Part shown: positions 26,601 to 27,278 of the stretch, piece by piece
Position numbering within the stretch: the first letter of the stretch is position 1
Layout: every line of letters begins with the position of its first letter
IMG/VR virus record: IMGVR_UViG_2690315994_000016
Location: 1 to 27,303 of that record
DNA length: 27,303 nucleotides
Source: a virus
Lineage: Duplodnaviria; Heunggongvirae; Uroviricota; Caudoviricetes
Strand: one strand, 5' to 3'
Translations under genes and position numbers: made by a program
Notes under the pieces: model-generated
Told to the model about the DNA's origin: nothing
Seen by the model: only the letters and a program-made list of their open reading frames with translations
The model's database searches: none

Positions 26601-27278
26601 TTATCGAGCTAAAATACTTAATGAATTTAACAACTGTATATCCAAGGTTTCACTTGAGGGCACTGGTAGTCCGTTCGCAATGCGATAATTTTTTATTGAC
26701 TGCCTTGTGGAAGGCCCCATTATGCCGTCAATATTCCCGTTGTAATAATCTTTGTCCAGCAAAGCGAATTGAACCCGCATGATTAAGCGCTTACGCTTCT
26801 CTGTACCAGAAGTCAGCCCATTACTTGCACGGTTAGCTTCTGTAGTTCCAACAGAATTCGTAGTAGTAGAGTTGTTATTGTCGTTAGAACGAAGCGAACG
26901 CACAGAGGAAGAGGACGATGAGGGACTTGTTCCTGAACTTGAAGACCCAGATGAACTTGGTGAGCTGTATGTTTTTGGATAATAGGGAGTGCTGCCACCA
27001 TAGTACCCGCCACCTGATGATGAACGGTGAGAACTATGGCTCCGATGGGAGCTATGACTGCGATGCCCTGCAATGTAGAATGGAACTTCGGTGTTAAGTG
27101 GGGCTATCACTAAATCATGTTCATTAAGAGTCATACCAGGCAAATCACTTGCCCATACAGAATTATTGAGTGCCAAAAACCCCGGAAGTAGAGCAGCAAA
27201 ATGAACCGCCCCGGGTTTCCTGGAGAGTGTTTTATCTGTGAACTCAGGCTGCCAGATCATCGTTTCCGATGGAAGCAT
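26601..27278 (-). CDS. Putative secreted peptidoglycan-binding protein with His/Ser-rich low-complexity linker
   Basis: Signal-peptide-like AALLPGFLALNNSVWA; HRSHSSHRSHSSHRSSS and poly-Ser tract; C-terminal LLDKDYYNGNIDGIMGPSTRQSIKNYRIANGLPV resembles PG_binding_1. Confidence 0.6.
   Translation of the reverse strand: MLPSETMIWQPEFTDKTLSRKPGAVHFAALLPGFLALNNSVWASDLPGMTLNEHDLVIAPLNTEVPFYIAGHRSHSSHRSHSSHRSSSGGGYYGGSTPYYPKTYSSPSSSGSSSSGTSPSSSSSSVRSLRSNDNNNSTTTNSVGTTEANRASNGLTSGTEKRKRLIMRVQFALLDKDYYNGNIDGIMGPSTRQSIKNYRIANGLPVPSSETLDIQLLNSLSILAR

Follow-up and report, generated by a model that had tools for sequence, protein, structure and literature searches.

The hxsA reading frame at the right end of the window

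The window analysed here, 27,303 nucleotides in length, is according to an exact-sequence look-up the entire draft contig CYBJ01000042.1 (27303 bp) of the short-read assembly GCA_001284825.1. Its minus strand holds, at positions 26601–27278, an ATG-to-stop open reading frame (ORF) of 225 amino acids, for which the first-pass annotation had proposed a secreted protein that binds peptidoglycan, carrying His/Ser repeats, a Ser/Gly/Tyr tract and, at its C-terminus, a PG_binding_1-like domain. All of these elements are present in the sequence (ORF scan and Pfam PF01471), and the family to which the protein belongs, HxsA, is indeed periplasmic and needs its peptidoglycan-binding domain (PMC13128918). 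The segment HRSHSSHRSHSSHRS consists of five tandem His-Xaa-Ser (HxS) units (HRS-HSS-HRS-HSS-HRS; residues 72–86, window 27021–27065, minus strand) and is followed by SS, which together with the last unit makes up the SHRSS modification motif. A tract rich in Ser, Gly, Tyr, Asn and Thr lies 3′ of the HxS units, with Ser accounting for 39 of the 182 residues past the signal peptide, while five of the six His residues in the mature region fall within the regular HxS array. The peptidoglycan-binding domain (window 26661–26774, minus strand; ORF residues 169–206) scores 23.6 bits against the PF01471 cutoff of 23 and resembles the peptidoglycan-binding domain of SleB (6tci; E = 0.0047).

By its sequence, the ORF is hxsA, the gene for the periplasmic effector of the published HXS anti-phage system. 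Next to the HxS repeats with SHRSS and the C-terminal peptidoglycan-binding domain, it scores 151.6 bits against the NCBIfam equivalog model TIGR03979 (“His-Xaa-Ser repeat protein HxsA”; cutoff 121.65), with only ORF residues 27–223 aligned, on profile positions 6–189 of 190. The same boundary is seen in the comparison with Escherichia coli O55:H7 strain USDA5905, in which residues 6–204 of HxsA are 100% identical to ORF residues 27–225. The remnant of hxsA spans window positions 26601–27201 (minus strand) and contains native codons 6–204 and the stop, plus the last base of codon 5. These 601 nt recur as 100% identical DNA in at least five complete genomes, which disposes of the suspicion that the low-complexity region is an assembly artefact, and in O55:H7 and early-branching O157 strains of E. 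coli, RefSeq gives this DNA the name hxsA.

The HXS system (hxsD-hxsB-hxsC-hxsA; Li et al., Nat Commun 2026;17:3910, PMC13128918) blocks phage DNA entry and restricts 110 of 113 coliphages, with a protection of over 10^3-fold. Defence depends on the full set of four genes, and their order is D-B-C-A in 99.6% of HXS systems (PMC13128918). HxsA is laid out as a signal peptide (residues 1–22), five HxS repeats and the peptidoglycan-binding domain; replacement of the signal peptide, mutation of the peptidoglycan-binding domain or conversion of any one repeat to AAA abolishes defence, and removal of hxsB, of hxsC or of hxsD abolishes HxsA processing, its periplasmic accumulation and defence (PMC13128918). 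The SHRSS motif carries a +8 Da modification, and periplasmic HxsA binds DNA (PMC13128918). The native O55:H7 protein starts with MKKFNFAALLPGFLALNNSVWA followed by SDL, in agreement with the published 22-residue signal peptide, and its residues 48–78 begin directly behind Tyr47 and end at Tyr78, in line with the reported chymotryptic peptide that carries the modification.

The window ORF departs from this layout at its N-terminus. The start MKKxxLAALLPGFL is not found there: MKKFN and the start codon have been replaced, and the hydrophobic signal-peptide core with its cleavage site (FAALLPGFLALNNSVWA; native residues 6–22, window 27150–27200, minus strand) has been kept but lies at ORF residues 27–43, behind 26 codons derived from the insertion sequence IS629. 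The signal-peptide-like N-terminus of the first-pass annotation is thus real as a core and misplaced as an N-terminus. The signal-peptide region of HxsA is unusually conserved across genera (MKKxxLAALLPGFLxLN, with the motif AALLPGFL), far above generic Sec signal peptides, which fits the published hint of a specialised, HxsBCD-dependent N-terminal processing.

The tandem His/Ser hexapeptides were examined as well, together with variation in repeat number between strains, a check that the first-pass annotation had proposed. Five tandem HxS units are present in the protein, but Tandem Repeats Finder reported no tandem repeat in positions 26601–27303, because the units differ at synonymous sites. 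They are therefore kept at the protein level only, so that slippage-driven change in their number is unlikely and the repeat number is stable rather than slippage-prone. No variation in these five units was seen across four aligned E. coli sequences, which represent three distinct native alleles of hxsA. Among the 120 homologues listed, the longest tandem run is mostly five or six (five units in 70 homologues, six in 27 and four in 13). SH.SS is present in 112 of 114 full-length HxsA homologues. A 7-aa insertion (SDSSTGA) directly past the signal-peptide cleavage site occurs in strain EC4 (L005, 6202–6837), in homologues P0001–P0006 and in many enterobacterial alleles, and is absent from the O55:H7-type allele of the window. 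Among 5426 complete E. coli genomes, hxsA was found in 155, where the median number of places is one, and hxsCBD in 153; the gene is single-copy, and there is no paralogous family of the kind that the first-pass annotation had considered.

IS629 at the contig ends and its junction with hxsA

An inverted repeat of 102 nt (positions 5–106 versus 27202–27303; 98% complementary, far beyond chance) links the two ends of the window and reaches its last base. The inverted copy of ~100 bp that had been noted at positions 7–106 is real as a repeat, but only 77 nt of it (27202–27278) belong to the ORF, the remaining 25 nt being upstream of the ATG, and it is no second copy of the N-terminus of the gene: both arms are the terminal 102–106 nt of IS629 (IS3 family). 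The left arm (1–106, plus strand) is 100% identical to IS629 nt 1205–1310, and the reverse complement of the right arm (27202–27303, the element lying on the minus strand) matches nt 1209–1310 at 98%, with two mismatches in 102 positions. The reference for this comparison was the complete 1310-bp copy of E. coli O55:H7 DEC5E, which begins with TGAACCGCCCCGGG, finishes with CCGGGGCGGTTCA and is 100% identical to the segment of JQ347801 (phage JLK-2012) annotated as IS629 transposase. The closing sequence is the inverted repeat of TGAACCGCCCCGG, and the first 25 nt of IS629, its opposite (IRL) end, align at 92% with window positions 27202–27226, which reveals the terminal inverted repeat.

IS629 is abundant in E. 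coli O157:H7 and O55:H7 and in their Stx phages, and the last ~100 nt of the window (~27203–27303) have thousands of matches in E. coli genomes, under IS3-family transposase features. Judged from the alignments, the arms are the same orfB-distal (IRR) end of two oppositely oriented IS629 copies; the idea that the window ends are the two sides of one copy was rejected, as both show this same end. Only the tips of the 1310-bp element are in the window, since the contig ends ~100 nt into each copy, and it stops on both sides because the assembler could not cross the multi-copy IS629. Recombination between the two inverted IS629 ends could invert the 27-kb segment between them.

The right-hand copy runs off the contig and takes the place of hxsA nucleotides 1–14 and of everything upstream. 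IS629 abuts hxsA at nucleotide 15, so that codons 1–5 (MKKFN) with the start codon have been lost, together with the native 4-nt overlap between the hxsA start and the hxsC stop. In the alignment with the native allele, ...TTATGAAAAAATTTAATTTTGCT is swapped for ...CCGGGGCGGTTCA followed directly by TTTTGCT; in a longer view, the native ...CCAATTTTATGAAAAAATTTAATTTTGCTGCT, in which the hxsC stop overlaps the hxsA ATG, becomes ...GGAAACCCGGGGCGGTTCA followed by TTTTGCTGCT. The insertion point lies 11 nt past the hxsC stop. The IS629-derived part of the ORF (27202–27278, minus strand) makes up codons 1–25 and two bases of codon 26, and ORF residues 1–26 form the IS-derived peptide MLPSETMIWQPEFTDKTLSRKPGAVH. 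Their reading frame differs from that of IS629 orfB, which stops 42 nt short of the IS tip (in DEC5E at L001 position 6845), and a transposase–HxsA fusion was rejected on these grounds. The 225-aa ORF is a mechanical chimera of 26 codons from the IS629 end and native residues 6–204.

The IS-derived peptide is absent from all 120 homologues listed in a search with the chimeric ORF, in which coverage was ~89% for nearly all full-length matches and 91% at most; the cluster of E. coli sequences more than 90% identical to the chimeric ORF was not among the matches listed. An exact-sequence look-up placed the chimeric protein sequence on one contig, that of the window itself. In DEC5E, the corresponding RefSeq HxsA model WP_001419985.1 (L001, 6202–6861; 219 aa) begins inside IS629 at the second ATG, and its N-terminus is artificial, an annotation artefact of a disrupted gene.

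Expression of the chimeric ORF would rely on read-through from IS629: no sigma-70-like minus-strand promoter site was detected in the IS arm, a weak result given that its 102 nt are all the sequence available, and no good Shine-Dalgarno sequence precedes either ATG. Both the hydrophobic core and the VWA cleavage site survive in the ORF, which also gains K/R residues immediately before the core; export of the chimeric HxsA would therefore be conceivable if it were translated.

Partner genes and genomic surroundings

Searches with the HxsB, HxsC and HxsD proteins of USDA5905 (tblastn) returned chance matches only within the window, and adjacent hxsB, hxsC and hxsD genes in the order D-B-C-A are not found on the contig. 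Near-identical islands with an intact hxsD-B-C-A operon, in which hxsC overlaps the start of hxsA, are present in O55:H7 USDA5905 and in strain EC4. The intact island, which is integrated at ssrA, runs from an integrase through a small hypothetical gene and the DUF6119 gene to hxsA, hxsC, hxsB, hxsD and an ABC-three-component system.

In O55:H7 DEC5E, positions 2443–6904 of the locus (L001) are 99.93% identical to window positions 22842–27303, the junction between IS629 and hxsA included. DEC5E is the only complete genome with this junction, and its chromosome reproduces it base for base. Beyond the far side of IS629, the DEC5E chromosome continues with ypjA-proximal DNA, and a target-site duplication is absent (ATTA versus TTTT). 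Compared with USDA5905, ~20 kb have been lost, including hxsC, hxsB and hxsD; DEC5E is not among the best 60 hxsCBD matches, among which sister strains score 99.9–100%. The junctions of the window and DEC5E are likely identical by descent, with the right IS arm differing from DEC5E at 2 of 102 positions, and the genome of the window has likely lost hxsC, hxsB and hxsD by descent, as in DEC5E.

Insertion sequences (IS3, IS2, ISSen4, ISVsa5 and an unnamed member of the IS3 family) were also observed inside hxsB or hxsC in 6 of the best 60 hxsCBD matches, and inactivation of HXS by insertion sequences looks recurrent and independent.

The ssrA island that ends in hxsA starts with the last 43 nt of ssrA (22842–22884, plus strand), an att copy. 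ARAGORN did not find a complete tmRNA gene in the window, which holds these last 43 nt of ssrA only; in DEC5E, ssrA is located at L001 2123–2485. Immediately downstream of hxsA lies the DUF6119 gene (24721–26532, minus strand; 603 aa; Pfam PF19614, 95.1 bits), which adjoins hxsA in every annotated genome examined. Together with an overlapping hypothetical ORF of 138 aa (both within 24318–26532), it constantly accompanies hxsA in the ssrA island of every annotated genome inspected; USDA5905 has a frameshift in the DUF6119 gene, and EC4 a shorter version of it. PADLOC-DB 2023 gave no match for HxsA, the DUF6119 protein or the 138-aa ORF; this database has no HxsA model, HXS having been published later.

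Upstream of the island, a P2/186-like prophage integrated at ssrA occupies positions 107 to ~20850, with genes for baseplate V, W and J, lysis, head, terminase and portal proteins, replication, CI and the integrase. Its first gene in the window is P2-like tail gene I, which the left IS629 copy has cut short to a 5′ fragment of ~41 codons (107–231, minus strand). Residues 5–42 of this ORF align with Pfam Tail_P2_I at profile positions 1–38 of 139, and homology to intact P2-like prophages, in which the equivalent gene is annotated as “phage tail protein I”, starts at window position 107. The tail-fibre, sheath/tube, D and ogr genes of the prophage are not on the contig. Unless these missing parts follow immediately on the other side of IS629, the prophage is probably defective.

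Several further genes appear to be cargo. An anti-phage dCTP deaminase of 585 aa (20860–22617, minus strand; PADLOC dCTPase, 487 bits; Pfam dCMP_cyt_deam_1) is located at the end of the prophage, between its integrase and the ssrA att copy. Low-GC cargo at 11074–13314, between the portal and replication genes, occupies a known P2 hotspot and includes candidate defence or toxin genes: a DUF4145 protein (11074–11772) with a weak match to PD-T7-4, and a protein at 12173–12754 with ShosT/PsyrT-like matches (E ~1e-8), overlapped by a 189-aa ORF without a match. A separate 189-aa ORF (2110–2679, plus strand) lies in a patch of 38% GC that separates baseplate gene V from the tail-completion genes; it is on the strand opposite to its neighbours and has no Pfam or PADLOC match. 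EC5502 carries a different hypothetical gene at this spot, which suggests a variable cargo slot.

Alternative readings and relation to known systems

Taken together, the window very probably contains the hxsA gene of an HXS system at the end of an ssrA island, truncated by IS629 and cut off from its maturase genes, with a second copy of IS629 as the source of the terminal repeat. In the intact system, the two radical-SAM enzymes HxsB and HxsC act with HxsD to process the N-terminus of HxsA and to modify its last HxS repeat; the protein is exported to the periplasm and attached to peptidoglycan through its C-terminal domain, and its basic HxS repeats then halt incoming phage DNA. At the window locus IS629 is seated against nucleotide 15 of hxsA, the start codon, the basic n-region MKKFN, the hxsC overlap and hxsC, hxsB and hxsD have gone from the contig, and the oppositely oriented left copy truncates gene I of the neighbouring prophage. 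As all four hxs genes and the native signal peptide are required in the published work, we infer that the window copy of hxsA is most likely an inactive remnant, and the same requirements predict a loss of phage protection for this locus. The first-pass annotation, partly supported in its description of the protein, had missed both the lost start and the lost partner genes.

A residual alternative is a simple insertion of IS629 between hxsC and codon 5 of hxsA, with hxsD-B-C intact on the other side and the chimeric HxsA, made from an IS-borne ATG by way of read-through transcription, still matured and exported, so that the system works at least in part. The far side of the element falls outside the window, as the contig ends within it, and an insertion 11 nt past the hxsC stop need not damage hxsC. 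Further, the h-region, the cleavage site and residues 23–47 are kept, and the extension counted from M7 has a net charge of +1, with SRK placed beside the core. However, the sole complete genome with this junction, DEC5E, has lost all three partner genes from an island 99.93% identical to that of the window; the locus lacks the native start with its hxsC overlap as well as the conserved MKK n-region; neither a promoter-like site nor a good Shine-Dalgarno sequence precedes the two ATGs; and the published system lost its defence once the signal peptide was replaced (PMC13128918). We regard a simple insertion with a working system as improbable.

The His-rich repeats might instead serve primarily in binding metals such as Ni, Zn or Cu, in which case the protein would handle metals in the periplasm rather than act as an immunity effector. 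His-rich arrays commonly bind metals, and six His residues are found in the mature region, five of them in the regular HxS array. Against a role of this kind, the operon protects over 10^3-fold against 110 of 113 phages, each HxS repeat being needed for this effect, and periplasmic HxsA binds DNA and is covalently modified at its last repeat (PMC13128918). The published evidence points to a radical-SAM modification of that repeat and to DNA binding through the basic repeats, and the genomic setting is that of a defence island with an ABC-three-component system and the dCTP deaminase nearby. We consider metal binding as the main function highly unlikely.

That the shared 100 bp represent a second copy or paralogue of the 5′ end of the gene, and hence a recombination target or a paralogous family, can be given almost no credence. 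A 102-nt inverted repeat of 98% does join the window ends, and the 27-kb segment could in principle be flipped by homologous recombination between the oppositely oriented IS copies; but the shared segment is IS629, which has thousands of matches across E. coli genomes, what comes after the left copy is phage gene I and not hxsA sequence, hxsA is single-copy (155 of 5426 genomes), and none of the 120 HxsA homologues listed has the shared peptide. The identity of both arms with IS629 refutes a second gene copy. An assembly artefact in the low-complexity region or the terminal repeat, to which a short-read draft contig ending in a repeat lends some colour, with collapsed IS copies as a conceivable source of consensus noise at the two mismatched bases of the right arm, is refuted for the gene by the identical hxsA sequence in at least five complete genomes and by the DEC5E chromosome, and is almost certainly wrong, with the exact bases of the IS arms alone being uncertain.

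A truncated hxsA at the edge of a draft contig has consequences mainly for annotation. Both the HxsA family and the way it works have been in print since 2026, and NCBI annotation already uses the name. The ORF and WP_001419985.1 should be treated as a disrupted gene whose N-terminus is IS629 sequence, and a lone match to hxsA should not count as an HXS system in surveys of defence systems. Terminal “duplications” of draft contigs are often shared IS ends and not gene paralogy. On a more speculative note, the loss of the HXS entry gate to IS629 could be a recurrent, selected event that opens cells to temperate phages or other DNA rather than neutral decay, a proposal that we consider improbable. 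If it were true, an IS-killed hxsA beside a new P2-like prophage at the same ssrA site would be a trace of selection, the independent IS hits in hxsB and hxsC of other E. coli would reflect selection against a broad entry block, and the lineages concerned would be those that gain from taking up prophages, O55:H7 and O157:H7 among them.

The protein family, the system and the insertion sequence are all already known, and the anatomy of the window locus departs from the published one only in being broken. Like the published HxsA, the window protein has a signal-peptide core, five HxS units ending in SHRSS, a Ser-rich linker and a C-terminal peptidoglycan-binding domain, and its gene shares the island and the neighbours of the intact O55:H7 HXS operons. 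In contrast to the published system, IS629 has displaced codons 1–5 together with the start and its hxsC overlap, and hxsC, hxsB and hxsD are missing from the contig. The window allele natively encodes 204 aa, compared with the 214 aa implied for strain MEM by the published numbering 48–214.

More distant relatives are found among the radical-SAM/SPASM-matured, RiPP-like systems that Haft and Basu reportedly catalogued in J Bacteriol in 2011. HxsA resembles the substrates of such systems in that it was first defined as a repeat-bearing substrate encoded beside paired radical-SAM maturases, which are missing from the window locus. However, it is an immunity effector of ~200 aa that contains a folded domain, and not a small secreted natural product. 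With the PG_binding_1 domain of SleB (PDB 6tci, 4fet), the C-terminal 40 residues align over the conserved core Y-G-x-DG-G-T; unlike SleB, HxsA carries its peptidoglycan-binding domain without a catalytic domain, as an anchor only.
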